IMG/VR virus record: IMGVR_UViG_3300045988_149737
Direction: 5' to 3' (one strand)
From: a virus
Lineage: Duplodnaviria; Heunggongvirae; Uroviricota; Caudoviricetes
DNA: 64,000 nt
Shown here: one piece after another, positions 1,275 to 63,143 of the stretch
Layout of the letters: every line of letters begins with the position of its first letter
Numbering within the stretch: position 1 is the stretch's first letter
Notes under the pieces: model-generated
Database searches by the model: none
Told to the model about the DNA's origin: nothing
What the model saw: the letters and a program-made list of their open reading frames with translations, nothing else
Program-made: the position numbers and the translations under genes

Positions 1275-1308
1275 TCTCATTGATAGGTAAGTGCTTATCT
1301 ATTAATAT

Positions 1309-5853: not shown

Positions 5854-5920
5854 TTGTAGGTAGTTATCTATCTATGTATATTTAACATGCGTAATAAAAC
5901 TCTGGAATGACTATTCGTTT

Positions 5921-5947: not shown

Positions 5948-6023
5948 TCTGTCTGGTCTTGTTCTCTCAATGAATGTAAACTCACATGATGAATAAGTAA
6001 TTACTTATCTTTGTGAGGTTTTT

Positions 6024-10827: not shown

Positions 10828-10847
10828 ATAGGTAATCACTTACCTAT
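10828..10847. promoter_or_regulatory. palindrome ATAGGTAA-tcac-TTACCTAT (family 2 site)
   Basis: Perfect 8-bp arms, 11 nt upstream of the methyltransferase start; same family recurs at least 10 times in the window. Confidence 0.45.
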
Positions 10848-12453: not shown

Positions 12454-13047
12454 ATGACGACGAAGACACCAGCCCGATCGCAAGCAAAAACTCGCAAAAA
12501 AGCCAAAAACAAAAATTCTCCCCGCACCAATTACACAACGCCTGTCGTAGAGTTCAATCCCCAGCTTAAAACCGTGAAAATCTTCAGTGATGGATCTTGC
12601 CTTAAAAATCCGGGTGGCCCGGGCGGTTACGGTATCGTTCTTCAGTATCGTGGAGAGGAACGCGAGTTCTCAGATGGTTTTCATAGCACCACCAATAACC
12701 GCATGGAGATGATGGGGGCACTTATCGGGCTGGAGCGTTTGAAATATCCATGCAACGTTATTTTACACTCTGATAGCCAGTATCTGAAAAACGGCATGAC
12801 ACTGTGGATGAAATGGTGGAAACGCAATGGATGGATGACTTCTGACAAAAAACCGGTAAAGAATGTTGATCTGTGGAAGCGTCTGGATGAGGCTGCAAGT
12901 CGACATAATGTTCGCTGGAAGTGGGTTAAAGGTCACGCCGGGCATCGTGAAAATGAAATATGTGATCGACTCGCGAAGATCGCAGCTTTTTCCGCAGCAG
13001 ATATGCCTCACAAGAAAGATATTGGTTTTGTTTACAACAAACGGTAG
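12454..13047 (+). CDS. rnhA: ribonuclease HI with basic N-terminal extension
   Basis: [51 protein letters not shown] collinear with E. coli RnhA; ATG at 12454 with RBS caggag (ORF track start 12367 lacks RBS). Confidence 0.9.
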
Positions 13048-13062
13048 GTAAGTGTTTACCTA
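13045..13062. promoter_or_regulatory. palindrome TAGGTAA-gtgt-TTACCTA (family 2 site)
   Basis: Overlaps the rnhA stop codon. Confidence 0.4.
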
Positions 13063-13192
13063 TCATTTTAAATCATGTATCTTATCGGCGTCAGGATGAC
13101 AATGTGTCGGTAAGACACAGTTCCAGGATGGAACGAGAAAGGCGGCTGGCGATTGCCAGCCGCAACTCTTTCTGACACTGGATGGAGTCCAC

Positions 13193-16330: not shown

Positions 16331-18014
16331 GAATACAGCCCTTTCCATCATCGACGATGCCAACTCAAACACTGCTATCGACTATCGGCAGGAAATGAAC
16401 GTCATCCACGAAATTGTGGCCGAGTGCGAGAAAGAGATCGCCTTCATGTATCAGGTACACGACTTCGTTTATGGCGACGAACGCCACAACATGATTAATC
16501 GCCTGCTGAGACTAAACCATCGACCAGATGAAGATCGCTCGCGTTTAAATCGAGGTTGGTTGGATAAAGTCGATCTGGAATGGGTGAAACAGAATATTTG
16601 GGCCGAGTACTGGAGGAAGGTCACGGACATGACTAACGTTTTGCTGATCATGCCAGCTTCCCGTCGAGATGAGTGGCGCGAGCAGTTTATAGAGGGCAAA
16701 CAGGAAGTCATCAAAACTGACAGAACCGGCTACCAGATGAAGGTTAAAGAGTTCGTTGGTGTACCGGAGTTCAAAGCAGAAACGGTCATACCCACGATGC
16801 TTAATTTGCTGAATGACAGGCACAAATATCTCTCTGAGCGCGTGTATGGCTTGTTTAAGGCGCTGAGTCCTGCGCACAAGACAAATAAGACAAACGGTTT
16901 CAGCGAACGTCTGATAATCGCTGACTGCATTTCTGATTTCTGGCGGGACAGCGTTAGTGTGAACTATCGCAAAGAGGACTATATCGACGATCTGCGTGTC
17001 TTGCTTCATTTCTTCGCGCACAAAGAATTTATTACCATCAACCGCACTGCTGAGGTGCTATCAGCTGCGTATCGGGCAAACGACTGCCAGACCGGTGACT
17101 GGATGAACGTCGATGGAAATCTGATGCGCGTGAAGATGTTCAAGAACGGCAACGTTCACTTTGAAATACATCCTGACGTGGCCTGGAAGTTGAATGAGGT
17201 GCTGGCTTACAGTATGCCTGCTGCAATCCCCGCGCCATGTCGCACCGCGCCAAAAACACGGGCACCAAAGCAGTTCGGGTTAATCCAGAAGACGATCTCC
17301 GTGCCGGTTCGCACTGCGCTTCGTGACGGGCGATTGAGCAAAGACAAAGGCGTATGGTACTTCTCTGATTCAGCTCTCCAGAAGTCGCAGGTGGAAGAGC
17401 TTGAGCGCACACTGAGCTTCATTGGCGGCGTGCAGGAGAAAAAGCACTGGCAGTTCCCGTATGACATCGTCCATACGCTAAATACGATTGTGGCTACCGG
17501 TTTAATACCGGATACAAAATCACACCAGTTCTACCCTACCCCACGCTTGATTGCTGAGTACGTTGCCAGAGCCACTGAATTGAAGCCTGGTGAGAAGCTG
17601 CTGGAGCCTCAAGCCGGACGTGGGGATCTTCTGGCCTATATTAACGCCGATCTGGAAGATGTTACCTGCATAGAAATCGCACCTCTCTTCGCTGATATCC
17701 TGCGTGGAAAAGGGTATACGAACACGATTTGCTGCGACTTCATAAAGTGGTCTGAGGACAACGTAGGTTATCAGTTCGACAAAATCGTTATGAACCCGCC
17801 GTATTCGCTTGGTCGTCATAGAGAGCACACGCTGGCTGCGCTGGGGCATCTGAAAGTCGGCGGGCGTCTTGTAGCAGTATTGCCGGGCACTGCGCCAATA
17901 CTGGACTGGATGACGATGGATAATTACGTTTATGCCAGAGGGAAGTCGTTTACCAACGAGTTTGAAGACACAGGGATCACAGTCAGCGTATACGTTTTCA
18001 AACGCGTTAAATGA
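16329..18014 (+). CDS. two-domain protein: unknown N-terminal domain + C-terminal amino-methyltransferase (N6A/N4C type)
   Basis: 561 aa; C-terminal YPTPRLIAEYV, LEPQAGRGDLL (SAM-binding motif I) and VMNPPYS (motif IV); N-terminal ~380 aa without recognised motif. Confidence 0.8.
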   Translation: MNTALSIIDDANSNTAIDYRQEMNVIHEIVAECEKEIAFMYQVHDFVYGDERHNMINRLLRLNHRPDEDRSRLNRGWLDKVDLEWVKQNIWAEYWRKVTDMTNVLLIMPASRRDEWREQFIEGKQEVIKTDRTGYQMKVKEFVGVPEFKAETVIPTMLNLLNDRHKYLSERVYGLFKALSPAHKTNKTNGFSERLIIADCISDFWRDSVSVNYRKEDYIDDLRVLLHFFAHKEFITINRTAEVLSAAYRANDCQTGDWMNVDGNLMRVKMFKNGNVHFEIHPDVAWKLNEVLAYSMPAAIPAPCRTAPKTRAPKQFGLIQKTISVPVRTALRDGRLSKDKGVWYFSDSALQKSQVEELERTLSFIGGVQEKKHWQFPYDIVHTLNTIVATGLIPDTKSHQFYPTPRLIAEYVARATELKPGEKLLEPQAGRGDLLAYINADLEDVTCIEIAPLFADILRGKGYTNTICCDFIKWSEDNVGYQFDKIVMNPPYSLGRHREHTLAALGHLKVGGRLVAVLPGTAPILDWMTMDNYVYARGKSFTNEFEDTGITVSVYVFKRVK

Positions 18015-18015
18015 T

Positions 18016-18032
18016 AGGTAAATACTTACCTA
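18016..18032. promoter_or_regulatory. palindrome TAGGTAA-tac-TTACCTA (family 2 site)
   Basis: 2 nt after the methyltransferase stop. Confidence 0.4.
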
Positions 18033-18075
18033 ATTTGTGTAAGAATGTAGTTACTAAACGATAAGAGAAAAACAC

Positions 18076-30377: not shown

Positions 30378-30408
30378 GCCCCGCCATCCTTACGGGGCTT
30401 TTTTGTTT
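30378..30408 (+). terminator. rho-independent terminator
   Basis: agccccg-ccatcctta-cggggct followed by tttttgtttt. Confidence 0.6.
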
Positions 30409-30468
30409 TGTAAGTACATACTTACGATCATAGAATATAAAAATAACCAATACACTACGGAGAGTGAA

Positions 30469-32660: not shown

Positions 32661-32709
32661 CTGAGAAGAGGGCCAGAAACGGCCCTTTCTCTATAGCCAC
32701 CAGCTGCCG

Positions 32710-33505: not shown

Positions 33506-33552
33506 GATTAAGCTCCTTAAAAGCGCCCATAGTGGGCGCCAGATTCCATTAA

Positions 33553-34795: not shown

Positions 34796-34798
34796 AAC

Positions 34799-35323: not shown

Positions 35324-35327
35324 GTCA

Positions 35328-35792: not shown

Positions 35793-35818
35793 CTTTGTCT
35801 CCCTAATTGATAGCGTGA

Positions 35819-36097: not shown

Positions 36098-36099
36098 AA

Positions 36100-37659: not shown

Positions 37660-37706
37660 AAACCTCTTTCCTTAGTGCCTTTTGTATGTTATTTGGCTAT
37701 TATAAT

Positions 37707-37722
37707 AAGTAAGTGATTACTT
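37707..37722. promoter_or_regulatory. palindrome AAGTAA-gtga-TTACTT (family 2) in divergent intergenic region
   Basis: Between minus-strand helicase and plus-strand ParB-like gene. Confidence 0.4.
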
Positions 37723-37741
37723 AGTGGATTGTAGCAATAAA

Positions 37742-39725: not shown

Positions 39726-39972
39726 TTTGAAGATCGTAGAGCTGAAGCCATCGAAAGAGGCTGACAACAACAACGTTGAAGTCATCCGCCTGCTGGAAGA
39801 AGCACTCCAGTACGCCAGAGAAGGCAAAAGCCAGAGCCTGGCACTGCTGATGATCAACAACGACGGCAGTGTGCTGGATTGCTGGCATAACGGTGGGCGT
39901 CCATACGTCATGGTTGGGGCGATGGAATCGCTTCGCCTGGACTTCATCAATGCCAATATCGAGCGTAGGTGA
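39718..39972 (+). CDS. hypothetical small protein
   Basis: 84 aa; start overlaps upstream stop. Confidence 0.4.
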   Translation: MPDLKIVELKPSKEADNNNVEVIRLLEEALQYAREGKSQSLALLMINNDGSVLDCWHNGGRPYVMVGAMESLRLDFINANIERR

Positions 39973-40868
39973 TCGACATGACAGGCATCATCATCAAACG
40001 CTACCGCCCGGAAGAGTTCCCGCGTCATCTGGACTTTCTGGAGCGTATGACCGTTACCAAAGGCACGGTTGAAGACTGGCACGCGCTGAAGTCGCTGCAC
40101 TACAAGACGGATGGTAAGCCGTTCGCGCCAACGTATTATCGCTGCGAACTGGACGACCGGCTGGTGGGCGTAGTGGTTATGGCTTACCCGAAACTGCTGC
40201 TGGCGCCTCGCCATCGCATGTTTCCTAAGCTGAAGCCAACCACCAATACCACCGTGGCCAACCAGTATTGGGGCCGGTACGTGAACAACAACTTTGCCGT
40301 GATCAGCCGTTCCGTTGTTGACACTCAGTACCGCGGTGTCGGCGTCTCCTATCGAATGATTAACCTGGTTAGCAGGATGCACGACCGGCCAATCATCGAG
40401 ATCCAGTCGTCGATGAGCAAATACAACCCGTTCGCCATGAAAGCAGGGTTCCAGTTCATCCGTCCGGAGCGTCCGAAGAGCTATGAGAGTGCGTTGCGCG
40501 TCTTCCAGCGTCATTTCCGTTCTGACCCTGGCGACAACGAAGCGATCGTCAAAGAGCTGTTCGCCATGAGTGAGTCTCGCCGTCGTCGTGCGCTGCGTGA
40601 TCTGGTCGCTGACTACCACAAGAACAGTTCCCTGGCCAAAGCCGGGCGTAATCGTGGCACGACGATTCAGGACATTGCCGACAGCCTGGTGGACGAGGCC
40701 AGCATTGTGAAGCTGCTCAAGGACATTCACAACCTGAGCTTTACGTCTCCGTTGTATGGTGTGTACCGAAACCCTGACTTTGGTCGTCGACTGCCTGACA
40801 CGCTGCCACTGCTGGCATTCGACAAACAACCTTTGGATAAACCGTTAGAAATTGCTTTACCGGCATAA
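39969..40868 (+). CDS. hypothetical protein, possible GNAT-like fold
   Basis: VVDTQYRGVGVSYRMINLV resembles the GNAT acetyl-CoA-binding motif; weak. GTG start, alternative ATG at 39978. Confidence 0.4.
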   Translation: MIDMTGIIIKRYRPEEFPRHLDFLERMTVTKGTVEDWHALKSLHYKTDGKPFAPTYYRCELDDRLVGVVVMAYPKLLLAPRHRMFPKLKPTTNTTVANQYWGRYVNNNFAVISRSVVDTQYRGVGVSYRMINLVSRMHDRPIIEIQSSMSKYNPFAMKAGFQFIRPERPKSYESALRVFQRHFRSDPGDNEAIVKELFAMSESRRRRALRDLVADYHKNSSLAKAGRNRGTTIQDIADSLVDEASIVKLLKDIHNLSFTSPLYGVYRNPDFGRRLPDTLPLLAFDKQPLDKPLEIALPA

Positions 40869-40877
40869 GGATTTGCC

Positions 40878-41144
40878 ATGACGTTAACCGATAAACAAAA
40901 GGACATCATCAAAACGCTCAATCTAGGTTATGAGCGAGGTCATCTACTTGATCTGGACGAATTGCTTGAAGTTTTGCCGTACAAGACAACAAAGCAAAGT
41001 ATCCAGTTCTCAATTCGCGCTCTGATAAAAAAGGGGCTGGTGGAGAAAGGGCATACGCGCCAACGCATTGACAATCGCTATCACCGCCGAACTCTTGGGT
41101 TAACCACTTTAGGTCGAGCCAAAGCGAAGTTACTGGTGATGTAA
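40878..41144 (+). CDS. hypothetical small protein, possible winged-helix DNA-binding
   Basis: 88 aa; RBS aagga. Confidence 0.4.
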   Translation: MTLTDKQKDIIKTLNLGYERGHLLDLDELLEVLPYKTTKQSIQFSIRALIKKGLVEKGHTRQRIDNRYHRRTLGLTTLGRAKAKLLVM

Positions 41145-41166
41145 TCGGTCTGGGAGCTTATTTAAA

Positions 41167-41225
41167 GACCTGCTTCTGTATATATAAATAATAAGTAACT
41201 TATTAAATATATACGGAAGCAGGCT
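41167..41225. repeat. long inverted-repeat hairpin element, copy B
   Basis: cctgcttctgtatata ... tatatacggaagcagg; near-identical arms to copy A at 11474-11532. Confidence 0.6.
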
Positions 41226-41340
41226 TAATAAGACATGCCCAGACCTAATTAAACACCCCAGAAAACAAGTTGGTTAGCAGATGCAGTAAACAAGTTGTTT
41301 TAGAGCGCATGGACGCGCTCTGTGTGTTTTAGAGGGATCT

Positions 41341-41973
41341 ATGACGGTCGAAAAAGACGAGGTAAAAACTCGCCTGACACCAGCGGAGTGGGCCGAAGCT
41401 GAAGCCAAATGGACGTCAGGCGAATATACACTCTCAAAGCTGGAGGAAGAGTACGGCATTCGTCGTGAAACACTCTCCAGACATTTCAAAAAGCGAGGAT
41501 TAGAGAAAGGCGCGGACTCTGTTGGGAAGATGGTTCGTGAGTCTCTTAAATCTGACGCAGAGCTTCGCGCTAAAGCCCGTGCGGAAAAGATAGAAGAACG
41601 TCGTACACGTTATGACGGCTGGGCGTATGCGTTGGGGCAGATGGTGATGGTCGAAGTCACTACGGCCAAACGTGAGGGTAAGCCTTTAGGGGCGATTGAG
41701 GATTCTCTCAAGAGCTTACAGAGAGCAAGTAATACCCTTGCAAAATGCTTTGAAGTTTCGTCCAAAGCATTGGGCATGGATCATGCGGAAAATGACGAGG
41801 AAGAAATTCCGAACCTGGTATTTGGTGAGCTTACGCCTTCCCAGGTGGCGAAATTACGTCAGGAAGACGACGAGCCTGAAATCATCGATGACGAATTGCT
41901 TGAGACGTTGGAAGAAGAAGCTCTAAGCGAATTTGATGCGACAGATGATGGAAGTGAAGGGGAGGACGAATAA
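41341..41973 (+). CDS. putative terminase small subunit
   Basis: 210 aa immediately upstream of terL; N-terminal helix-turn-helix-like segment; acidic C-terminus; two family-1 operators and a hairpin upstream. Confidence 0.55.
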   Translation: MTVEKDEVKTRLTPAEWAEAEAKWTSGEYTLSKLEEEYGIRRETLSRHFKKRGLEKGADSVGKMVRESLKSDAELRAKARAEKIEERRTRYDGWAYALGQMVMVEVTTAKREGKPLGAIEDSLKSLQRASNTLAKCFEVSSKALGMDHAENDEEEIPNLVFGELTPSQVAKLRQEDDEPEIIDDELLETLEEEALSEFDATDDGSEGEDE

Positions 41974-43229
41974 TGGCAATCCCGTCCTCGCTCAGTCTTG
42001 TGCAACTGCATTCTGGACAGATGAAAGTCTTCCAGTCTCCGCATCGATTTAAAGTTGTTTGTGCTGGTCGACGCTGGGGAAAATCCCGGTTGTCGATCTC
42101 CACTATTATTCGTGCGGCGGCAAAGAAAAAAAAGCAAAGGGTCTGGTATGTCGCTCCTACTTACCAGATGGCTCGCCAGATTTTGTGGGACGATCTACAG
42201 GAAGTTCTGCCTCGTAAGTGGGTTAGGAAAAAGAACGACACCACGATGACAATCGTGTTGAAGAACGGTTCGGAGATCGCTCTCAAAGGTGCTGATAAGC
42301 CTGACACTCTGCGCGGCGTAGCGTTGCATTTTGTAGTGCTTGATGAATTTCAGGATATGAAGGCTGACACCTGGTACAAGGTGTTACGACCTACTCTTTC
42401 ATCGACACGCGGCGGTGCACTGATCATTGGTACGCCAAAAGGCTTCTCGGAATTTCACAAACTGTGGACTATAGGCCAGAACGTAGAGCTGCAAAGAAAG
42501 GGACAGTGGAAGAGCTGGCAGTTTGTAACTGCCGATTCTCCGTTTGTGCCTACGGCGGAAATTGAAGCTGCTAAGAACGATATGGATCCTAAATCGTTCG
42601 CTCAGGAGTACCTGGCGAGCTTTGAGAACATGTCCGGGCGCGTTTACTACCCGTTCGATCGTAACGTGCATGTAAAACCGCTTCAGTTCAACCCTCGGTT
42701 GCCTATATGGGTAGGGCAGGACTTCAACATTGACCCGATGTCTTCCGTAATTTTGCAACCTCAGCCAAATGGTGAGCTATGGGCAATTGATGAATTGGTG
42801 CTCTTTTCCTCTAACACGGCAGAAGTTTGTGATGAGCTTGAGAGACGCTTCTGGCGCTGGAAATCACAGATAACGGTATTTCCAGATCCGGCAGGTGCTT
42901 ATCGCCAACATGCTCGCGGGGAGTCTGACGTCGACATATTCAAAGAGAAGGGATTCTTACGTGTCGATTATTCGAAAAAGCACCCGCCAATTGCGGATCG
43001 TGTTAATGCTGTTAACCGAATGCTGATGACTGCATCTGGAGATATCCGGCTGTATATCGATCCGAAGTGCAAGCATTTGATTGATTCACTGGAAAAAGTC
43101 ATCTACAAGCCTGGAACACGAGATATGGATAAGACAGGTGGCATTGAGCATAGTGCAGACGCATTGGGCTATCCAGTACATCGTAGGTATCCAGTCAAAA
43201 ACCGTGTTATTCTTGGTGGTTCTCGATAG
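41973..43229 (+). CDS. terminase large subunit
   Basis: 418 aa; Walker A-like VVCAGRRWGKS, Walker B VVLDEF; followed by the portal gene. Confidence 0.85.
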   Translation: MAIPSSLSLVQLHSGQMKVFQSPHRFKVVCAGRRWGKSRLSISTIIRAAAKKKKQRVWYVAPTYQMARQILWDDLQEVLPRKWVRKKNDTTMTIVLKNGSEIALKGADKPDTLRGVALHFVVLDEFQDMKADTWYKVLRPTLSSTRGGALIIGTPKGFSEFHKLWTIGQNVELQRKGQWKSWQFVTADSPFVPTAEIEAAKNDMDPKSFAQEYLASFENMSGRVYYPFDRNVHVKPLQFNPRLPIWVGQDFNIDPMSSVILQPQPNGELWAIDELVLFSSNTAEVCDELERRFWRWKSQITVFPDPAGAYRQHARGESDVDIFKEKGFLRVDYSKKHPPIADRVNAVNRMLMTASGDIRLYIDPKCKHLIDSLEKVIYKPGTRDMDKTGGIEHSADALGYPVHRRYPVKNRVILGGSR

Positions 43230-43255
43230 GTAAGTAATTATCTAAGGTTATTCAA

Positions 43256-44830
43256 ATGGAATTGAACGACAAACAAATTAAGGATCTGGTGGCGCGACGC
43301 CACCCGGAATACGAAAAGAAAAAAGAACATTGGGACTTCCTCGCCAGCACTTACGCTGGCGGGCGTGGTTGGTTTACAGACAATATCTTTCGTTACTTTA
43401 AAGAGGGAGATCAGGAGTTTAAGGAGCGAGTTGAGCGTGCTTATCGCTTCAACCACACTCGTGAGGTGGTAAACCTCATCAACAAATATCTCTTTAAAGA
43501 AGACATTCATAGAAATATCGAAGAGGCACCAGAGCAGATCCGCAATTTCTGGAAACGTGCGACTCGCCAGAATGCCTCTATTGACTCATTTATGGCCGCT
43601 ATTGATTTGCAGTCGTCTATTTACGGTCGCATATGGGTTGTTGTCGATAGCACGATGAGTGGTGATGTTGAGTCAGTAGCTGACGAGAAAAAGAAAGATG
43701 CTCGCGCCTACGCCTACTGGATTTCACCTCAGCAAATGCTGGATGTGGCATGGGACGACGACGGGAATATGTTGTGGGCGTTAATTGTGGAAGTCGCTCG
43801 TGATGACGAAGATCCTTTTACTTCTACAGGTCAGGAATACCAACGTTATCGTCTGTGGACACAAAACGAGTGGTATCTGTTCCGTGAGGAAGTGAAGAAG
43901 GGCGCTGGTGGAGCAGGTCGCCGTCAGGCAAAAGTTATTTTAGAGGACAGCGGCGCGCATAATCTCGGCGTAGTTCCTGTGTTTCCTGTTGATTGTATTG
44001 GAGAAAGTGAATCACCGTATTTCAGCCCATCGTTGATCGATGATATCGCTTATCTTGATCGTGCGGTTGCAAACTATCTGTCAAACCTTGATGCCATTAT
44101 TCAGGATCAGACATTTAGCCAGTTGGCTATACCGGTACAGTCGCTTTTACCTGGTGATGAAAACCACACTAAAGTGCTTGAAATGGGCACAAAGCGAGTC
44201 TTCACCTACGATTCTGAAGGTGGAAACCAGCCGTTTTATCTGTCACCAGACCCGAAACAAGCTCAGATGATCATCACTACGATTAAGACGGTGATTAACG
44301 AAATCTACCATTCAGTTGGTGTAGCTGGTGAGCGAACGAAGCAGGACAACGCACAGGGAATCGATAATTCATCTGGTGCCGCAAAAATGTATGACTTCCA
44401 GCGTGTAAATAGCTTGCTTGTCACAAAAGCAGAGCGTCTGGAAAGGGCTGAACGCCAAATCATGCTACTGGTTGCGAAATGGATGGGGGTAGATCTGAAC
44501 GAAGACCACTCTTTAATTGCGTATCCAGAAAGTTTCGATATTCGTGGCCTTACTGATGAATTTTCTGTTGCCGAGAAACTGTCATTACTTCAGGCACCGG
44601 ACTCTGTACGTCGTCACCAGATGGAAATGCTTATTGAGAAGATTTTCCCGAACATTACTGAGGCGATGAAAAAGGAATTTGATAAAGATCTCTTGAATTT
44701 TCCGCCAAAAAATGATCTAAATACCCTTGAAAATAAGTCAGTACTTACTTATGATCGTGGTGCAGCCCAAGAAAGCGGGCAAGATCAACCCCGAGGGAAT
44801 GGGGACTCATCTACTCAAGAGAACGAGTGA
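43256..44830 (+). CDS. portal protein
   Basis: 524 aa between terL and scaffold/capsid genes; assignment by position and size. Confidence 0.7.
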   Translation: MELNDKQIKDLVARRHPEYEKKKEHWDFLASTYAGGRGWFTDNIFRYFKEGDQEFKERVERAYRFNHTREVVNLINKYLFKEDIHRNIEEAPEQIRNFWKRATRQNASIDSFMAAIDLQSSIYGRIWVVVDSTMSGDVESVADEKKKDARAYAYWISPQQMLDVAWDDDGNMLWALIVEVARDDEDPFTSTGQEYQRYRLWTQNEWYLFREEVKKGAGGAGRRQAKVILEDSGAHNLGVVPVFPVDCIGESESPYFSPSLIDDIAYLDRAVANYLSNLDAIIQDQTFSQLAIPVQSLLPGDENHTKVLEMGTKRVFTYDSEGGNQPFYLSPDPKQAQMIITTIKTVINEIYHSVGVAGERTKQDNAQGIDNSSGAAKMYDFQRVNSLLVTKAERLERAERQIMLLVAKWMGVDLNEDHSLIAYPESFDIRGLTDEFSVAEKLSLLQAPDSVRRHQMEMLIEKIFPNITEAMKKEFDKDLLNFPPKNDLNTLENKSVLTYDRGAAQESGQDQPRGNGDSSTQENE

Positions 44831-44851
44831 TAAGTAACAAAGGGAATTTTT

Positions 44852-45739
44852 ATGAAACTGTGGCAAATGCTTTTGGCCCGTCGTGGTCTGATGGATGTTG
44901 CTGAAGCGCATGAGCGTGGGGGCGCTGGCGGTGTAGCTGCTGATAATGAGCAGAGTACACAAGATCCTGACAAGCAGGGTGAACAAAAAGAGCAGCCGAA
45001 GGGTGATGACGAATACGCTGGCATGACTCATGAAGAGTTACTGGTCGAACTTCGCAAAACCAAGAAAGCTGGTGCTGAACTGCTGAAAGAGAACATGAAG
45101 CGCAAAGAGAAAGAGCGCACATTGGCCGATCAGCTTGCTCAGTACGGTGATATCGACCCGGCGCGTGCTCGCCAGCTTTTAGAAGCTGAACAGGCCGCAG
45201 AAAACGCACGTCGTGAGGCGGAGCAAGCTGAACTGGAGCGTCGTGGTGAGTTCGATGCTGTTAAAAAACAGATGATCGAAGCACACCAGGCAGAGCTGGC
45301 ACAGCGTGACGAACGTTATGCAGCACTGGAAAGTGAAAACGCATCACTGAAATCTCAATTAGTCGAGATGACCGTGGGCGCTTCCTTCAGTAACTCTCTC
45401 TTCCTACGTGACAAAGTTCTAATGACTCCGGCAAAAGCCCGCGTGATCTACGGTTCTCATTTTGAAGTGGGTGAAGACGGTAGCGTAGTGGGTTATGACA
45501 AACCGGCAGGTCATAAAGAACGAGCTGTTCTGGTTGACGGTGAAGGTAAGCCGTTGCCGTTTGAATCCGCGATTGAACGCATTGTGCGGGCAGATCCGGA
45601 AGCTGACGCATTGATGCGTAGCGAAGCCAAGCAGGGTGTAGGCTCACATTCCAAATCGACCTACACAATATCCCAACCGAAGAACAAGTCGACTATGGAT
45701 AAGTTGGCCTCCGGTCTGGGGAAAATTGGACTTAAGTAA
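44852..45739 (+). CDS. putative scaffolding protein
   Basis: 295 aa, charged helical stretch (QLLEAEQAAENARREAEQAELERR); between portal and capsid genes. Confidence 0.5.
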   Translation: MKLWQMLLARRGLMDVAEAHERGGAGGVAADNEQSTQDPDKQGEQKEQPKGDDEYAGMTHEELLVELRKTKKAGAELLKENMKRKEKERTLADQLAQYGDIDPARARQLLEAEQAAENARREAEQAELERRGEFDAVKKQMIEAHQAELAQRDERYAALESENASLKSQLVEMTVGASFSNSLFLRDKVLMTPAKARVIYGSHFEVGEDGSVVGYDKPAGHKERAVLVDGEGKPLPFESAIERIVRADPEADALMRSEAKQGVGSHSKSTYTISQPKNKSTMDKLASGLGKIGLK

Positions 45740-45764
45740 CATCTAAATCAAAGGGAATTGATAG

Positions 45765-46640
45765 ATGCCATTACTGCGTGAAGAAGCTGAAAAGCTGTCT
45801 AACAACGAACTTGAACAGGGTGTGATCGAAACTATCATCGATCGCGATGACCTGTTTGCCATCCTGCCTTTTATGAAAATTAATTCAAAGGCATATCTGT
45901 ACAACCGTGAAAAAACGCTGAGTGAAGCTACCTTCATCGACGTTAACGACACCATCACTGAAGGTGCAGCAACCTTCGAAGAATGCGTTGCGAAACTGCG
46001 TATTCTGGCTGGTGACGTAGACGTTGATAAATTCCTGGCAACCACTATGGCCGACACCAATAACCAGTTGGCTATTCAGGTTCGTCAGAAAGTTAAAGGT
46101 CTGGCTCGTGCGTTCCGTCGCAACCTGATTTTGGGTGACTCCAGCTCCAACACCAAAGCGTTCGACGGCATTCCACGCCTGATGCACACAGATCAGAAGA
46201 TCGACATCGCAGGTGCATCTATGACTTTCTCTATGTTCGACGAACTGGTCGATGCGGTGAAAGATCTTGGTGCTGACTGCATCATGATGCGTTCAGAGCA
46301 CCTGCGTGCTTACCGTGCGCTGCTGCGTACAGTAAACGTAGGCCCGTCTGAAATCATGATGGAGAACTTCGGTCGTCCGATGCTGTGTCATAACGGCGTT
46401 CCGTTCATCATCAACGACTTCATCCCGACCGATTCTGGCAAAGCAAGCATCTACTGCCTGCATCTGTCAGAAGAGAACGGCGTTACTGGTCTGTATGGCG
46501 GCGACAACGCAGGTATCGTTGTTGAAAACATTGGTACTGTACAGAACAAAGACGCAGTACGTACCCGTGTGAAGTGGTACTGCTCTCTGGCGAATAAGCA
46601 CGATAAGGCTATCGCTGCACTGACCAATGTAAAAATTTAA
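45765..46640 (+). CDS. major capsid protein (HK97-fold type, by position)
   Basis: 291 aa after scaffold; RBS aaagggaa; strong terminator follows. Confidence 0.7.
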   Translation: MPLLREEAEKLSNNELEQGVIETIIDRDDLFAILPFMKINSKAYLYNREKTLSEATFIDVNDTITEGAATFEECVAKLRILAGDVDVDKFLATTMADTNNQLAIQVRQKVKGLARAFRRNLILGDSSSNTKAFDGIPRLMHTDQKIDIAGASMTFSMFDELVDAVKDLGADCIMMRSEHLRAYRALLRTVNVGPSEIMMENFGRPMLCHNGVPFIINDFIPTDSGKASIYCLHLSEENGVTGLYGGDNAGIVVENIGTVQNKDAVRTRVKWYCSLANKHDKAIAALTNVKI

Positions 46641-46674
46641 TCAGTGAAGTAGATAAGTAATTATCTATGTTAAA

Positions 46675-46700
46675 GGGTGGGCTATACGCCCACCCTTTTT
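46675..46700 (+). terminator. rho-independent terminator after capsid gene
   Basis: gggtgggc-tatac-gcccaccc followed by ttttt. Confidence 0.65.
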
Positions 46701-46713
46701 GTAGGAGCGAGAA

Positions 46714-47634
46714 ATGCCAGAACAAAAGATGAAGATTACGGAAGAGGCATTTTCGGATTTTACGGGGCATATGTGCCGTGCCGGATTTACCAATTCTATC
46801 TCCGATGAACCTTTAACCGAGCGACAACAAAGTCAGCTATCTGCTTGTTTGCAGGCGGTTCCCTTCTCCCAATCCGTAGACATAACCCCGGCTTCACCGT
46901 CAGTTTTGGTTGGGAAAACTGTTCAACTTAGTGCAGGTATTACTATGGGTAAGAGTGCCAGTTCATTCACCTGGAAGTCAGCCAATGATCAAATTGCAAC
47001 CGTCAACGGCACTGGATTAGTAACTGGCGTAGCACCAGGCAAAGTGAAAATTACCGCAACTGATCAGGAAACCCAGCTTTCCGCGTCAGTGGAAGTCACC
47101 GTAAATCCGGTAGCCGTTCAATCCGTAACGGTAACGCCAGACTCAACCTCTGTTGAGAAAGGGAAATCAGTCAGTCTGAAAGCGAATGTTCAGCCGTCAA
47201 ATGCGACGAATAAGGCAGTTACTTGGTCTTCCAAAAATGAAGACAAGGCAACGGTAGACCAGAGCGGGAACGTTACTGGTGTAGAAGTTGGCACTGCGAC
47301 GATTGAGATCGTTTCCCAAGATGGCAGCAAAAAGGCAACTGCAACGGTGGAAGTAACTGCGCCTGTTGTGGCTGTTACTGGTGTCGAAATCGACCCAAAT
47401 AGCACAACCGTTGAGGCAAACAAAACTGTTCAGCTGACCGCAAATGTCGAGCCGGCAGGAGCCACAAATAAAACCGTTACTTGGGAATCCAAAAATACCG
47501 AGTTTGCAACGGTTGACAGCGAAACCGGTGTTGTAACTGGTGTTGCGGCTGGTACTGCCACAATCGAGGTTACTACCCAAGATGGTAGCCACAAAGCGAC
47601 AGCAACTGTAGAAGTTACTGCCGCACAGGAATAA
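46714..47634 (+). CDS. Ig-like (Big_2-type) repeat protein, putative capsid decoration
   Basis: Three repeats of the pattern TV...V.A.V.P..ATNK.VTW.S.N...ATVD..G.VTGV..GTATI. Confidence 0.7.
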   Translation: MPEQKMKITEEAFSDFTGHMCRAGFTNSISDEPLTERQQSQLSACLQAVPFSQSVDITPASPSVLVGKTVQLSAGITMGKSASSFTWKSANDQIATVNGTGLVTGVAPGKVKITATDQETQLSASVEVTVNPVAVQSVTVTPDSTSVEKGKSVSLKANVQPSNATNKAVTWSSKNEDKATVDQSGNVTGVEVGTATIEIVSQDGSKKATATVEVTAPVVAVTGVEIDPNSTTVEANKTVQLTANVEPAGATNKTVTWESKNTEFATVDSETGVVTGVAAGTATIEVTTQDGSHKATATVEVTAAQE

Positions 47635-47678
47635 CCGATATTGGGCGGCTTTCGCCGCCTAAGTGGAGAGAAAGCGTT

Positions 47679-48113
47679 ATGAAACCAGCAAAAATTGTTT
47701 TATTAGAACCGCAATTTTCCGGTTATTCGGGAATGCTGTGTGGCGTTCATTTCGAGAACGGGGTATCCGTAGCGGAGTTGCCTTTTATCGATCAGCAGAG
47801 GATTTGTGCTTCAATGCGAGCGTCAACAGTAGAGGGCAAAAATGTTTCTCCGTCTGCTGCATACAGTGATCGTGGTGAATTGACCGCAGACATGATTACC
47901 GAGCCAACAGCGCCTGACATTGTGCCAATGAAACGTGGGACACCAGATGAACCGGCCAAACAGATTCAGACTTTCACACGAGAAGAGTTGGAGTCAATTG
48001 CAGACAATGAAGGCATTGCCGGTCTACGTGTGATTGGTAATCAGGTTGGTGTCAAAGCGAAAGGAATTGTCGAGATGATTGAAGGCATCCTGAAAGCACA
48101 AGGCGGTGAGTAA
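47679..48113 (+). CDS. hypothetical head/connector protein
   Basis: 144 aa in the head-tail joining region. Confidence 0.45.
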   Translation: MKPAKIVLLEPQFSGYSGMLCGVHFENGVSVAELPFIDQQRICASMRASTVEGKNVSPSAAYSDRGELTADMITEPTAPDIVPMKRGTPDEPAKQIQTFTREELESIADNEGIAGLRVIGNQVGVKAKGIVEMIEGILKAQGGE

Positions 48114-48946
48114 TGGCGCAGATCGACTCGTATCGTAGCGGTGAAGCTGTTTCCCTTTCATTTGCCTTCAACGTGCTGGATATCGAATCTGCTACCTACA
48201 CAGTAAAGGACAGCACCGGGGCTATTCTCGTTGATGGCGAGCCGCTAGAAATTACCAGCGGTCAAATGTCGATTCCGGTTGTCGTGTCGGCTGAATATAA
48301 CCAGCTCTCTGAGAAAGAACGCGATCTGCGGTACGTCATTGTGAAGGCTGTTGCATCGGGTCTGACGCATGAAGAGCGGCAAATGTATGTTCTGCTGAAT
48401 AGTTTTGAACTGTCGATACCAGAACAGTCGTTTGCAACTGTCGCTGATGCTCAAATGCAGGCGATCGATATGCTGAATGGGGACACTTTGCTGTCGGATG
48501 GTGAAGGCTTAATGCGCAAGCGTCTCATTGAGGCTACCAGACGTATTAAAACTTTACCGTTCTCAATCCGCAAAATTCTACGTATCGACTTTGACCGATA
48601 CGATCGCCCTCAAAATATGCTGAATGTGTATGACATTCCGTGGGGAGCAGACGGAGCGTACCGGCATGATTTAGTCGATTGGGAAAAGATGACGCAGGAG
48701 AAGTTTGAAGAGTTACCTGACTACTTCAAAGAAGCGTTGATGCTTGCCGTTGTCAACGAAGCGTGTGAGATCGCAAATGGCAATGATGTAGCCTCAGCAC
48801 GAGAGGATGGCATTTTGTCAGAGTCCATCGGTGAAACAACCAACATGTACCGTACCGGTAAAGCTGCAAACGTGCATGTGGCTCGTAGTACCTGGCGCTT
48901 GCTGGTCAGTTACATTAACAACCGTATGATTGTTCGCCGTGCGTAA
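48113..48946 (+). CDS. hypothetical head/connector protein
   Basis: 277 aa; taATG overlap. Confidence 0.45.
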   Translation: MAQIDSYRSGEAVSLSFAFNVLDIESATYTVKDSTGAILVDGEPLEITSGQMSIPVVVSAEYNQLSEKERDLRYVIVKAVASGLTHEERQMYVLLNSFELSIPEQSFATVADAQMQAIDMLNGDTLLSDGEGLMRKRLIEATRRIKTLPFSIRKILRIDFDRYDRPQNMLNVYDIPWGADGAYRHDLVDWEKMTQEKFEELPDYFKEALMLAVVNEACEIANGNDVASAREDGILSESIGETTNMYRTGKAANVHVARSTWRLLVSYINNRMIVRRA

Positions 48947-49025
48947 CGCCAGTCGCATTATTTACTTTTGGTCTAAAGGGTTTTTGGCCAGTAATGAGAG
49001 CGACCGACAACAACAGGGAGAGAGC

Positions 49026-49370
49026 ATGAATATTTCATGGCAAACAGAAATTGCGATCTACCGCTTTGGCGCAAAGAACGTTTACGGTGAGGCGCAATTA
49101 CAATTCGTCAGGAAGACGAATGTCGGCGTGGTTAAGTTCGAACAGAGTAATGAGAAATCGTCAGTTCGTGCTGATAGCTCTGGTAGTCGTGGTAAGGCGA
49201 GTCTGGAGCTGTTTGATGCTGTGTTAGTTGTCCCTTTAGAAGCGGCTGTACAACTTGATGATGTGCTGATCCTTGAAGGTCAAAAATTAAAGGTGTCCAG
49301 TGTTCATCGCCGCTGGGGGCTACGAGGAAGACCTGGGCATCTTGAAGTGGGGGCGAATATATGGGTCTGA
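49026..49370 (+). CDS. hypothetical head-tail connector protein
   Basis: ATG at 49026 with RBS gggagaga; ORF track start 48930 overlaps the upstream gene. Confidence 0.45.
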   Translation: MNISWQTEIAIYRFGAKNVYGEAQLQFVRKTNVGVVKFEQSNEKSSVRADSSGSRGKASLELFDAVLVVPLEAAVQLDDVLILEGQKLKVSSVHRRWGLRGRPGHLEVGANIWV

Positions 49371-49834
49371 AATACGATGCGCATCAGTTCAAACGTGCGG
49401 GGAATAGACTCAACAACAGCCAGAAAGCATTTAAGCGATATCTTATTCGGGACATGGAAAAGCTGGCGCGTTTGGTTGAGCGTCTCAGCCGTGCAATGGC
49501 TCCGCTGGAAACCGGATCTCTGGAGACAGCTATCTTTGCCAGGGTGATTAAAGAAGGTTATTCAGGGCTGCGCATTGAGCTTTCTGTGTCTGGAGCAAAA
49601 CCACGTCAGGGGCATCCGGGCGTAGAAGTAGGTGACTATGCTAAGTACATGGAGCTGGGTAAATACCGACTCGGTTATCTTTCTCGAATGAAGAACGTGA
49701 CAAACCCACCAATTGCCGGTGTTAAACCCCGTGTTGGGCCACACTTTCTGGAAAGAGCGGTGGAAATTAGCGAGAAGCAGTTCTCAGAAGCGATTCTTGA
49801 GGCTGCCAGAAAAGCCGGTTTTACGAGAGGTTAA
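49361..49834 (+). CDS. hypothetical head-tail joining protein
   Basis: 157 aa; overlapping start. Confidence 0.45.
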   Translation: MGLKYDAHQFKRAGNRLNNSQKAFKRYLIRDMEKLARLVERLSRAMAPLETGSLETAIFARVIKEGYSGLRIELSVSGAKPRQGHPGVEVGDYAKYMELGKYRLGYLSRMKNVTNPPIAGVKPRVGPHFLERAVEISEKQFSEAILEAARKAGFTRG

Positions 49835-49835
49835 T

Positions 49836-50219
49836 GTGTTTATTGAAGCGTTTGCAAGTTTGATGCAGAAGGCAAAGATTGGCACGGTCGGGACTGATAT
49901 TTTCTGTCACTACTTGCCTGCCAATGTGAAATCTGGCGTCCTGCTTATTAACCCAAATACCGGTATCAGCATCGATCATGAGCTACAGGGCTTTTACCAC
50001 GAATCATTCACAATAATTGTGCGTGGTTCGTCAATTACTACGACGGTTGAGAAAGCCAATAAAATCATTGAGATGTTTCCAGTAGAGGAAACGGAATCTG
50101 GTGGTGTTTATTTTCGACTGGTACGACCGATGGCGATGCCAATCATTTATCCCAAAAATGATGGAGCATTAATAGAAGCAGGCATTCCAGTTGAATTTGC
50201 TGGCTATTTATTGAATTAA
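49836..50219 (+). CDS. hypothetical tail completion protein
   Basis: GTG at 49836 with RBS gagagg; ORF track start 49713 overlaps the upstream gene. Confidence 0.4.
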   Translation: MFIEAFASLMQKAKIGTVGTDIFCHYLPANVKSGVLLINPNTGISIDHELQGFYHESFTIIVRGSSITTTVEKANKIIEMFPVEETESGGVYFRLVRPMAMPIIYPKNDGALIEAGIPVEFAGYLLN

Positions 50220-50293
50220 GTTAATCGGTAAGTATATACTTACTGTTAGCGCAATGAATGCGTAGAATTAACGGAAAAAGGAGTTTTCCATCA

Positions 50294-51040
50294 ATGTCTA
50301 ATACCCATGTAAAAAACATCAAACTTGGTGCCTGTAAGGTGTCGTTTGGTGGTGTGGATTTGGGTTACACCAAAGGTGGTGTTCAGGTTGAAGTAGCCAC
50401 TGAAACGCTGAAAGTCACCGTCGATCAGTTGGGGCAGACCGTAATTTCCGAATTAGTTCAGGGGCGCAACATTACCATCACCGCGCCTCTGGCTGAGTCT
50501 GTACTCCAAAACATGGTTGACCTGATGCCTGGTTCTACTCTGAGCGAAGATGACAACTCTGTCACGATCACATCTGCACAGGGCGTTAACCTGATTGATG
50601 TGGCGAAGGAGCTGGTTCTGACTCCGCAGGACACCACCGACTATGTGTTGACCATCCCGAAAGCGGCAACCGCGGGCAACTTCACTATGACCTACCAGTC
50701 TGATGATGTTCGTGTGTTCTCTGTTCAGTTCAGCGCATACCCGGATGATGAAGGCGTTCTGGGCAAAATGAGCGGCCCTAAACCGGTAAAAACCGTGTCG
50801 ATCAAACCGGAATCTCCAAATGTAAAAGCAGGGGAGACTGTGCAACTGACAGCCGAAATCACTCCAGCTGATGCCGCAGACAAAACCGGTGTTTGGGAAT
50901 CCGAAGACCAGGAAAAGGCCACGGTAGATCAAACGGGTCTGGTACGTGGTGTGGCGCAGGGTTCTACAAATATCTCCTTCACCAGCAATAGCGGTGGTAA
51001 GAAGGCAACGAAGTCAGTAACGATTAACCCCGCAGATTAA
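50294..51040 (+). CDS. major tail protein with C-terminal Ig-like domain
   Basis: ATG at 50294 with RBS aaggag; C-terminal ~90 aa repeat the Big_2 pattern; position before chaperone and tape measure. Confidence 0.75.
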   Translation: MSNTHVKNIKLGACKVSFGGVDLGYTKGGVQVEVATETLKVTVDQLGQTVISELVQGRNITITAPLAESVLQNMVDLMPGSTLSEDDNSVTITSAQGVNLIDVAKELVLTPQDTTDYVLTIPKAATAGNFTMTYQSDDVRVFSVQFSAYPDDEGVLGKMSGPKPVKTVSIKPESPNVKAGETVQLTAEITPADAADKTGVWESEDQEKATVDQTGLVRGVAQGSTNISFTSNSGGKKATKSVTINPAD

Positions 51041-51095
51041 TCAGTAATTAAGCAGAGGCTCAGGATGGGCCTCTCTTTTAAAAGGATTTTAACCA

Positions 51096-51413
51096 ATGAC
51101 CAAATTACTCGATCTAGATTCCATTCTGCCTCCGAAGAAAAGCATCAAATTTGGCGGTCAGGAATATCCCATCGTTGAAATGACGGTAGGTCTGTTCGTT
51201 TCCATCAAGCAGATGGAAGGCAAAGATCTCATGAACATGTCTCCTGTTGAGCAAGTGACAGCTTATGCAGATCTGGTTCGTAAGGTTATCCCTTCAGTGC
51301 CTGATGAAGTTCTTGAAAAACTGACTGTTCCGCAACTCCAGCAGATCTTCACCTTCGCTATGGAAGTGATTGATGAAGAAAACGAAAAAGCGGCTGGCGA
51401 AGGGGCAAAGTAA
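51096..51413 (+). CDS. tail assembly chaperone (lambda gpG-like)
   Basis: 105 aa, acidic C-terminus, directly upstream of the tape measure gene. Confidence 0.6.
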   Translation: MTKLLDLDSILPPKKSIKFGGQEYPIVEMTVGLFVSIKQMEGKDLMNMSPVEQVTAYADLVRKVIPSVPDEVLEKLTVPQLQQIFTFAMEVIDEENEKAAGEGAK

Positions 51414-51763
51414 TTTCCCGCGATGAATCCGGGACAAGGACCGTCTCAATAGATCTCGGATTCTATTTCAGTCGTGTAGTTGCTCACTACGCCGTGTCGC
51501 CATTAGAGCTACTGAACGTTCCTCTCACGATGTTCTGGATGCTCAGTCGCAATATAGACCGTCTGCGTGCGGAAGAGGATGTCCGCAACTTACAAGTCGC
51601 TCGTGCGTCCCAGGCGGATGGCGAGGCTGTGAAGGCGTTCATGGAGGGTTTGCAACTCAGGATTGGAAGACCAGTCGTAACAGATAAAGTCTACGATCCA
51701 AGCCAGGATAAGGCAGACCCTGACGCCAAAGAGCAACTGATGCAAATATTTGGCAGAGGATGA
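51377..51763 (+). CDS. -1 frame extension of the chaperone (gpT-like; predicted frameshift product)
   Basis: The -1 frame is open from 51377 across the chaperone stop to 51763; candidate slip sites gaaaaag (51384-51390) and caaag-taa at the stop. Confidence 0.4.
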   Translation, partial: RKRKSGWRRGKVISRDESGTRTVSIDLGFYFSRVVAHYAVSPLELLNVPLTMFWMLSRNIDRLRAEEDVRNLQVARASQADGEAVKAFMEGLQLRIGRPVVTDKVYDPSQDKADPDAKEQLMQIFGRG

Positions 51764-56342: not shown

Positions 56343-56384
56343 CTATCGACTGCCCCGACCGGGGCAGTCTCACAAGGATGTGAG

Positions 56385-56720: not shown

Positions 56721-56811
56721 GCATCTGGATAAGTAAGTACTAATTTACTATCATTGTGGCGCTGACAGGATGTTAGCGCCTACTTATTTCAAGGATGAAA
56801 CAATGGGAATT

Positions 56812-63050: not shown

Positions 63051-63143
63051 TTGTGGAAAAAAATAATCATTTCTGTAAAAATAGGTAGGTACTAACTTAA
63101 TGGTGGGCATGGAACGCCCACCATATCTAGGAGCAAAGGATAA

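Follow-up and report, generated by a model that had tools for sequence, protein, structure and literature searches.

In phage P1 one prophage repressor, C1, acts at many operators around a plasmid prophage of ~100 kb, and these operators overlap sigma-70 promoters of lytic genes; in the P1 record Oref, Omat, Ossb, Oc4, OrepL and Olpa are annotated at or next to -35/-10 signals. The C1 operators are asymmetric 17-mers bound by monomers, and they serve early functions only, the late operons being controlled via Lpa. In the cluster A mycobacteriophages, 20-35 repressor sites per genome, the stoperators (bound by gp71 in L5), lie in short intergenic gaps of the lytic operons as asymmetric 13-mers, which are oriented with transcription and block elongation. 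The Arc operator of Pant in P22 and the KorA and KorB operators of RK2 are palindromic and lie inside the core promoter, where repressor and polymerase compete; in RK2 a few global repressors act at 7-12 palindromic sites across the backbone. The parS, NBS and OB sites are continuous palindromes of 13-16 bp, those of Noc and KorB being dispersed, and in T7 sites for RNase III lie between genes. The late promoters of P1 depend on Lpa and are marked by a short palindrome with AAGT..ACTT just upstream of the -10, repeated before the morphogenesis operons (PMC10695390).

The window analysed here, a stretch of 64,000 nucleotides, represents an SSU5-like phage-plasmid with 98-99% identity to Escherichia phage Cyrano (pLF82) and to CMS-2020a; identity falls to 82% for Salmonella phage SSU5 and to 79% for Klebsiella phage-plasmids. 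The Cyrano annotation was carried onto it via tblastn, position 1 of Cyrano corresponding to position 41207 of the window. The plus strand holds nearly all of its genes: DNA-metabolism genes occupy 1-18 kb, an accessory block that is partly on the minus strand follows at 18-37 kb, and 3' of this block a parB-parB-ABC-ABC operon leads into the terminase, portal, capsid and tail genes. SSU5/pHCM2-like phage-plasmids are frequent in clinical E. coli, Klebsiella and Salmonella and bear resistance genes; to our knowledge their lysis-lysogeny control is essentially undescribed. Full-text literature searches returned no publication on the palindrome motif reported below or on an SSU5 operator, and we found no published description of the palindrome family.

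The palindromes share with the C1 operators of P1 the picture of many sites around a plasmid prophage that would answer to one prophage repressor: many copies lie outside coding sequence, and they overlap lytic core promoters, though not at every site. They differ from the P1 operators in being palindromic 20-bp sites, in having a small XRE-type HTH protein as candidate repressor, and in preceding late as well as early genes. Their placement in the gaps of lytic operons is stoperator-like and could explain copies without a promoter, such as those at 43226 and 46649; unlike stoperators, which are asymmetric and keep a single orientation, they are symmetric, and at least half of them fall on promoter hexamers at a constant register. 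Relative to the Arc, KorA and KorB operators they are more numerous and would involve different proteins. The likeness to P1 late promoters lies in the central AAGT..ACTT just upstream of a -10 before morphogenesis operons. At 9 bp the P1 box is shorter than the 20-bp palindromes, and P1 late promoters keep a single fixed distance to the -10 and lack a -35, whereas the palindromes occur in two geometries, one of them at the start site, with a TTG -35 in many relatives, and also precede DNA-metabolism genes. The arrangement is best explained as one of the same kind as the P1 C1 operators, although the site, here palindromic, and the protein both differ. Specifically, we consider it rather likely that the palindromes are double-stranded DNA operators of one phage-encoded dimeric repressor, placed within the host sigma-70-type promoters of most lytic operons. 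That a protein binds them, that it represses rather than activates, and which protein this might be, we infer from the features described below.

A single family of palindromes at gene boundaries

The motif is a 20-bp palindrome (ATAGGTAAGTACTTACCTAT) present in ~15 copies in the window, with the consensus R-ATARGTAAGT|ACTTACYTAT and the core TARGTA-N6-TACYTA. Information per half is similar (125 on the left vs 114 on the right, each a sum over ten positions in tenths of a bit), conservation is lower in the central 4 bp, and in the logo of the E. coli-group sites the flanks carry no signal past positions -3 to 21. Chance would supply 0.05-0.2 copies of the palindrome in the window. Even for the loose pattern TAAGT-N0-6-ACTTA there are 6 occurrences where 0.22 would be expected, and none of 100 dinucleotide shuffles contains as many; a half-site PWM scanned as a dyad finds 14 matches vs 0.16 in 100 dinucleotide shuffles (maximum 2), and a refined 22-bp PWM, at a score of at least 16, finds 15 vs 0.05 in local-composition shuffles. 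The enrichment that an earlier note on this DNA had proposed to measure is therefore not due to chance (14-15 sites vs 0.05-0.16 expected). A half-site is also present at 11868. The sites in the window, with the promoter-like matches and hairpins next to them, are as follows.

1283..1302, palindrome ATAGGTAAGTGCTTATCTAT (PWM score 29.4) between the RuvC stop (1274) and nrdA (1348); overlaps promoter-like TTGATA(1280)-17-TAATAT(1308) of the promoter scan; terminator hairpin downstream at 1309-1330
5856..5875, weaker palindrome GTAGGTAGTTATCTATCTAT (PWM score 18.1), 2 nt past the MazG stop; top overlapping promoter TTGTAG-17-TATATT
5989..6012, site with the perfect 16-mer ATAAGTAATTACTTAT at 5993-6008 (PWM score 24.7), 11-16 nt upstream of the thyX GTG (6024)
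10828..10847, palindrome ATAGGTAATCACTTACCTAT (PWM score 29.8), 11 nt upstream of the dam ATG (10859); promoter-like TTGCCA(10801)-17-AAAAAT(10829) with a TG extension, the -10 ending at palindrome position 2
13044..13063, palindrome GTAGGTAAGTGTTTACCTAT (PWM score 27.3) overlapping the RNase H stop codon; positions 18-23 read TATCAT; strongest hairpin of the set, -10.4 kcal/mol
18014..18033, palindrome ATAGGTAAATACTTACCTAA (PWM score 29.3) at the DUF4942 stop, the next gene lying 42 nt downstream
30406..30425, degenerate member (PWM score 13.4) with the inner 16-mer GTAAGTACATACTTAC at 30410-30425, downstream of a terminator and upstream of the gene at 30469; top overlapping promoter TTGTAA-17-TAGAAT
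37705..37724, palindrome ATAAGTAAGTGATTACTTAG between the divergent uvsW and parB, the parB ATG (37742) lying 17 nt further on; the last base of a -10-like TATAAT (37701-37706) is palindrome position 2
41184..41205, variant TAAGT-A-ACTTA in the middle of a long inverted repeat (41168-41223) upstream of terS
43226..43245, palindrome ATAGGTAAGTAATTATCTAA containing the TerL stop codon, with the portal ATG 10 nt downstream
44727..44755, plus strand, promoter TTGAAA-17-TATGAT with the palindrome ATAAGTCAGTACTTACTTAT (44733-44752) as its spacer, in the 3' end of the portal ORF and upstream of the scaffold and capsid genes; best promoter-like match in 37-57 kb (10/12, promoter scan)
46649..46668, palindrome GTAGATAAGTAATTATCTAT, on which the earlier note had centred, 8 nt past the capsid gene stop; strong terminator (~46675-46699) 6 nt downstream
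50224..50243, palindrome ATCGGTAAGTATATACTTAC, 4 nt past the Tc1 stop and 50 nt upstream of the major tail gene; promoter-like TTGAAT(50211)-18-TATACT(50240)
56729..56748, degenerate member ATAAGTAAGTACTAATTTAC (PWM score 25.8) between tail genes M and L; promoter-like TGGATA(56726)-17-TATCAT(56754); hairpin at 56758-56780
63081..63100, palindrome ATAGGTAGGTACTAACTTAA (PWM score 25.1), 30 nt past the tail J stop; top overlapping promoter TGGAAA-17-AAAAAT, ending at position 2; GC hairpin downstream at 63102-63123

Every site listed in the earlier note was found again at, or 1-4 bp from, the position given there, and three had been missed (5856-5875, 63081-63100 and, within the portal gene near its 3' end, 44733-44752). 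Several of its other statements needed revision. It had described a variable N2-4 spacer, and its sites seem to fall into two classes, one of 20-mers and one of 16-mers. Two spacing classes, N2 and N6, were rejected, every site fitting TARGTA-N6-TACYTA; the apparent classes and the 16-mers arise because TARGTARGTA has a 4-bp periodicity. There is thus a single family; at 5993 and 50228 the 16-mer forms the interior of an N6 site, and the supposed variable spacer is merely the less conserved central 4 bp. The site at 46650-46667, taken to be perfect, has 7-bp arms (TAGATAA/TTATCTA) that flank a non-palindromic GTAA, and the gene called thyA is of the ThyX type according to the annotation of a relative.

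The whole Cyrano genome carries ~30 copies of the palindrome, all amid plus-strand lytic genes. Intergenic sequence makes up 13% of this genome and holds 28 of the 33 PWM matches, which bears out the positional bias to gene boundaries suggested earlier; the most intergenic-enriched 7-mers of Cyrano are ATAAGTA and TAAGTAA. The PWM scan gave no match in the plasmid-maintenance and lysogeny modules of Cyrano, and in the window it gave none in the accessory/minus-strand block at 18.1-37.7 kb except the weak site at 30406. Several palindromes overlap the stop codon of the upstream gene or lie directly 3' of it, and the TAG stops of TerL and RNase H fall within the motif.

Conservation and lineage-specific variants

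Conservation was assessed in 80 related loci whose portal proteins have 68-100% identity. The palindromes recur at the same junctions, namely before parB, before terS, between TerL and portal, at the portal 3' end, between the capsid and Ig-like genes, and between Tc1 and the tail gene, and the bases just outside them vary freely. At the TerL/portal junction the palindrome is kept in the 80 relatives, with the TerL stop codon inside it in most lineages, and the 10-20 nt downstream diverge. Ahead of parB, a -10-like element is present even in relatives whose portal identity is as low as 68%. At the capsid site the stop, palindrome, terminator and RBS follow one another in a conserved order, and the orthologue of the site at 50224 is ATAGGTAAGTATATACTTAC. 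In a relative (L098, with a ThyX of 62% amino acid identity) a site lies at the same thyX junction with TGTAAAAT just ahead of it, and the dam-site geometry recurs there in the same form (TGTAAAAT).

A pattern scan of viral contigs recovered the same 20-mer, typically GTAAGTAAGTGCTTACTTAC, from contigs that lack nucleotide similarity to Cyrano and have a GC content of 58-65%; it is present there 3-5 times per 7-14 kb. These contigs are distant, syntenic SSU5-like elements with protein identities of ~54% for TerL, ~41% for the capsid protein and ~40% for ParB; in a genome scan, the close TerL relatives of this group came from Alpha- and Betaproteobacteria and Acinetobacter, on contigs of ~112-114 kb. 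An AT-rich 20-mer that remains intact in a high-GC background is read as sequence and not merely as structure. At the place upstream of terS, where the window has only a variant, these relatives have a canonical palindrome together with TATAAT. A point against the operator reading is that the exact 18-mer TAAGTAAGTACTTACTTA was also seen in unrelated viral contigs that share almost no proteins with Cyrano.

When genomes still further removed are included, the TerL/portal junction keeps a -35/17/-10 frame and the palindrome in its spacer is specific to the lineage. One variant is TAAGTAAGT.ACTTACTTA; Paracoccus and Acinetobacter have AGTAAG-NN-CTTACT, and Magnetospirillum, Massilia and Paraburkholderia have AAGTCA-N2-4-TGACTT. 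The AGTAAG and AAGTCA lineages include Paracoccus NZ_WMIG01000013, Magnetospirillum NZ_CAHP01000060 and Massilia NZ_JBJCIU010000006. Divergence of the palindrome inside a promoter frame that stays conserved is what one would expect of an operator that co-evolves with its repressor, and the changing spacer palindrome suggests such co-evolution with whatever binds it. At the portal-internal site the -35, the palindrome and the -10 persist in every lineage, and the portal peptide shifts with the palindrome variant (NKSVLTYD, NRYVNTYD, NRLSTTYD), so that the DNA element is maintained at the expense of the protein. It would constitute an operator preserved within coding sequence at a cost to the protein sequence.

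A sigma-70-type promoter frame in two registers

The relation to promoters is clearest in the high-GC relatives, where a -35 TTGnnn abuts palindrome position 1 and a 17-nt spacer separates it from the -10 (TACAAT, TATCAT, TATGAT, TACTAT or TATAAT) at positions 18-23. TTG stands exactly at positions -6 to -4 in 12 of 46 high-GC sites, against ~0.5 expected, and all 12 of these have TAnnnT at positions 18-23. Both strands were scored for promoters, which serves as an internal control for AT-richness: a good promoter is present on the gene strand in 27 of 44 high-GC sites and on the opposite strand in 4. The gene-strand score exceeds the opposite one in the high-GC sites (Wilcoxon p=7e-6) as well as in 25 E. 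coli-group sites (p=0.003). Two registers dominate, the -10 either starting at position 18, with the palindrome in the spacer, or ending at position 2; among the 27 gene-strand promoters, 15 have a -10 that begins at position 18 and 8 have one that begins at position -4. When the -10 ends at position 2 the palindrome consequently covers the transcription start. The -10 hexamer takes 2-3 of its bases from the palindrome, whose ends read AT... and ...TAT, which is a difference from the Arc, KorA and KorB operators. The TerL/portal junction of Alpha- and Betaproteobacteria is a full promoter of this type, with -35, 17-nt spacer and -10.

In the E. coli group the frame is weaker. Most sites lack a -35 and most have a -10-like hexamer; only ~13 of 25 score above the 95th percentile of random positions, and T is found at position 23 in only about half of the sites. 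At several of them no convincing -10 is present (43226, 46649, 13044, 37705 in the spacer geometry), and at 1283 and 46649 a terminator 6-8 nt downstream makes an odd place for a promoter. A downstream -10 or -35 was sought in the E. coli-group logo and none was seen, the frame being visible only in the high-GC relatives. Sigma-70-like sites are also fewer in the window as a whole than expected (19 vs 31.8 expected and 12 vs 21 expected). An independent promoter scan of the window placed several of its matches, those at 1280, 10801, 44727, 50211 and 56726, on palindromes. Of the earlier proposal that the sites are phage-specific promoters, one part stands, as they are embedded in promoters; these are, however, ordinary host sigma-70-type promoters (-35/17 nt/-10) and not ones that a phage-specific polymerase would use. 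Judged by its placement, the palindrome appears to be a regulated spacer or start-site part and not the promoter itself.

A candidate repressor

A dimer bound to the palindrome would exclude RNA polymerase in either geometry, and the fact that the palindrome occurs in two geometries, with the start site covered in one, agrees with a repressor rather than with an activator that works from a fixed position. The ~30 predicted operators per genome would precede early-type genes (nrdA, thyX, dam, ssb, recA, primase) and also late-type genes (portal, scaffold/capsid, tail, fibre, holin), so that one protein could hold the lytic programme off during plasmid replication. Copies that lack a recognisable promoter may act as roadblocks. 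A single operator for early and late genes leaves temporal control unexplained.

The likeliest binder would be the XRE-type prophage repressor homologous to CYRAN_45, encoded outside the window. CYRAN_45 is a 128-aa XRE-type HTH protein and putative prophage repressor; in the LF82 lysogen it is expressed, and the genes behind palindromes are not listed above background (PMC9928086). The promoter of the repressor gene itself, TTTACA-16-TAATAT, is directly followed by GGTAAGCACTTACC, which is the inner 14 bp of the consensus and lies at the start site (site ATCGGTAAGCACTTACCAGA), and this arrangement is kept in homologues of 66-100% identity. The core pattern of GGTAAGCACTTACC occurs three times in Cyrano plus the window, against ~0.007 expected, the other two occurrences being members of the family; the outer arms of the repressor-promoter site, a possible point of autoregulation, mismatch the consensus, and its full PWM score is unremarkable, being within the top 0.05% of positions, a level reached ~50 times per genome. 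The most conserved part of the repressor is the HTH segment GYKNxN...K.G, even in a high-GC homologue at 27% identity. Scans with the repressor, with the repressor alignment and with cobT returned no repressor homologue from the lineages with altered palindromes. Among other candidate regulators in the window, the protein encoded at 40878-41144 has no match in Pfam or PDB, and ten more small ORFs show no DNA-binding domain in Pfam. An FljA-like protein is encoded at 34799-35401.

If the palindromes are repressor operators, they provide a map of ~30 regulated promoters, a candidate repressor-operator pair, and a sequence marker for immunity groups across Proteobacteria. More tentatively, and with appreciable doubt, one may suppose that a single small XRE repressor gates every lytic operon directly, whether early or late, through ~30 operators that are themselves parts of the promoters, with no transcriptional cascade, and that operator variants define immunity groups. 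These would be the variants TAAGTAAGT, AGTAAG and AAGTCA, distributed from Enterobacteriaceae to Alpha- and Betaproteobacteria. Immunity and the cross-silencing of co-resident phage-plasmids could then be read from sequence.

Activation and genome organisation as alternatives

An unlikely alternative is that the palindromes are bound by a phage-encoded activator that stands in for -35 recognition, in the manner of Lpa at the -22 box of P1 late promoters, and turns all lytic operons on after induction. In its favour, P1 late promoters consist of AAGT[G/T]ACTT, 4 nt and TAnnnT, the palindrome centre here is AAGT|ACTT and would in the spacer geometry lie at ~-19.5, close to the -22 of P1, and the E. 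coli-group combination of a -10-like hexamer without a -35 is typical of activator-dependent promoters. Nevertheless, phmmer found no Lpa homologue among all Cyrano and window ORFs (E<10), and the PHROG family of Lpa (phrog_1704) is unmatched by the window or Cyrano proteins scanned. Moreover, at dam, parB, the repressor gene and J/fibre the palindrome covers the start site, a position from which an activator is unable to act, and the near-consensus -35 and -10 hexamers of the high-GC relatives should need no activation.

A further possibility, to which we give little credence, is that these are sites of the ParB, KorB or Noc type, at which the ParB-like protein of 37742-38422 would load or bind, along with its paralogue and the two ABC ATPases, so as to organise, silence or condense the genome. 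As with parS, the OB sites of KorB and the NBS of Noc, there is a continuous palindrome with a ParB-family HTH protein encoded nearby: the ParB-like protein contains the Pfam domain ParB_N and aligns with Spo0J, ParB and Noc over the N-terminal and HTH regions, a palindrome lies 17 nt upstream of parB in every lineage, and the parB-parB-ABC-ABC operon is conserved alongside the motif in the alpha- and beta-proteobacterial relatives. The parB site, however, has the appearance of a normal operator downstream of a -10, comparable to the one at dam, and a fixed -35/-10 register with a strand-directional promoter signal is not expected of partition or loading sites. ParB is also absent from the genes expressed in the lysogen (PMC9928086). 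Compared with the single-repressor picture without a cascade, it is less likely that the palindromes are loading sites for the ParB-ParB-ABC-ABC module as a phage-encoded genome organiser. AGTGGAT repeats were considered as another ParB target and rejected; they are RepA iterons located beyond the window.

DNA site or RNA element

Operators of a dimeric repressor would be recognised in DNA, and the arm mismatches bear directly on this point. Among 184 unique sites, G·T and A·C mismatches are about equally frequent at pair 4/17 (24 vs 29) and at pair 5/16 (31 vs 32), and pair 5/16 behaves as two independent half-sites. An RNA hairpin on the sense strand would tolerate G·U but not A·C, so this symmetry favours DNA. 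Correlated arm variants in the window had prompted us to consider an RNA hairpin with covariation, which the strand-symmetric mismatches of the 184 sites led us to reject. The conserved palindrome, the symmetric arm mismatches and the AT-rich sequence kept in relatives of 60-65% GC together make the binding site of a dimeric DNA-binding protein, one of the options named in the earlier note, the best-supported reading.

The competing view that the palindromes are transcribed as intercistronic hairpins, which are cut, protect 3' ends or are bound by a translational regulator, draws on their position between cistrons, often 0-15 nt past a stop codon, on the finding that most fold better than shuffles (z -2 to -4), and on the GC-rich hairpins that adjoin some of them. 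We regard it as very unlikely. The predicted hairpins are weak, with AT-rich stems of 6-9 bp and energies of -2.5 to -10.4 kcal/mol, and the site at 44733, which is conserved in every lineage, folds at only -2.8 kcal/mol (z=-0.8). The sequence, and not just the pairing, is kept in genomes of 60-65% GC, and transcripts from the sites' own promoters would miss part or all of the hairpin in both geometries. No Rfam family matches the window. The processing signal contemplated in the earlier note is likewise left unsupported by the weak hairpins, by the lack of a sense-strand wobble bias and by the Rfam result. On balance, the evidence favours palindromes that act as DNA rather than RNA.

It is scarcely credible that the motif is passive punctuation without a binder, serving as AT-rich stops in several frames (TAG/TAA every 4 nt on both strands) or as weak terminators, for although TARGTARGTA puts stops in two or three frames, the stops of TerL and RNase H fall within the motif, and the same 18-mer recurs in unrelated viral contigs, stop codons need neither a palindrome nor a fixed -35/-10 register, the copy at 44733 lies within an ORF and is read in frame, U tracts are lacking, and the lineage variants remain palindromic yet lose the stops (e.g. 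AAGTCA-N4-TGACTT). The earlier judgement that the palindromes are not terminators was correct: the features of intrinsic terminators, a GC-rich stem and a U tract, are absent from them, only 13043-13064 passes even a loose terminator pattern, and the true terminators adjoin the palindromes instead of lying within them.

Conserved operon near the terminase gene, and inverted repeats

The parB operator, the palindrome copy (a candidate repressor site) that precedes parB, is followed by two conserved features, and three inverted repeats of about 55 bp are considered with them:

37725-37736, conserved TGGATTGTAGC(A), immediately 3' of the parB operator
37742-40868, operon lying just before the terminase gene terS and coding for two ParB_N proteins and two ABC-type ATPases
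11477-11531, inverted repeat, copy 1
41168-41223, inverted repeat, copy before terS
Cyrano 31158-31212, inverted repeat, third copy

The ParB_N/ABC operon is retained in high-GC (58-65% GC) SSU5-like viral contigs at 35-55% protein identity, and on that account looks like a core module. The TGGATTGTAGC(A) segment is kept in all relatives, with the forms TGGATTGTATCA and TGGATTATATCA; the RepA iterons at Cyrano 60.2-62.3 kb have a similar core, AGTGGAT.

The inverted repeats consist of TATATA-rich DNA flanked by the GC-rich clamps CCTGCTTCTG / CGGAAGCAGG. The centre of the terS-proximal copy is TAAGTAACTTA, and the database records of both SSU5 and Cyrano start within it (window position 41207). 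The same layout upstream of terS is seen in the high-GC relatives, where it is accompanied by a canonical palindrome and TATAAT (L118, 2868; L146, 8539; L165, 1620).

Hairpins and promoter-like sequences

GC-rich hairpins lie just 3' of a palindrome, starting 1-9 nt from it, at four places:

1309-1330
46675-46699
56758-80
63102-63123

Two or three of the four carry U tracts. If the palindrome-linked -10 hexamer is in use, transcription would start within the 5' stem of the hairpin, such that transcripts from upstream would terminate while new ones would escape. Matches to the sigma-70 consensus are fewer than in shuffles, both in window 1-20000 (19 versus 31.8) and in 37000-56999 (12 versus 21); the first 20 kb is, in contrast, rich in terminator-like hairpins (30 versus 17.7).

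Palindromes in unrelated viruses and the accessory block

Several families of unrelated viral contigs (L092/L106/L148; L143/L157/L161; L140; L132; L144), with a GC content of 36-47% and almost no proteins in common with Cyrano, also carry the exact palindrome (G)TAAGTAAGTACTTACTTA(C), at 1-2 copies in each contig.

18100-37700, partly minus strand, accessory block
34799-35401, minus strand, FljA-like protein

The accessory block carries Ead/Ea22-like genes, one for a UmuD-like S24 peptidase, a MinD/ParA-like gene and numerous small ORFs, and within it the palindrome occurs only as a weak copy at 30406. The FljA-like protein matches Pfam Flag1_repress (FljA, the repressor of phase-1 flagellin) over its full length (E=2.5e-84), and is 78% identical to the Cyrano copy, as against ~99% for neighbouring genes.
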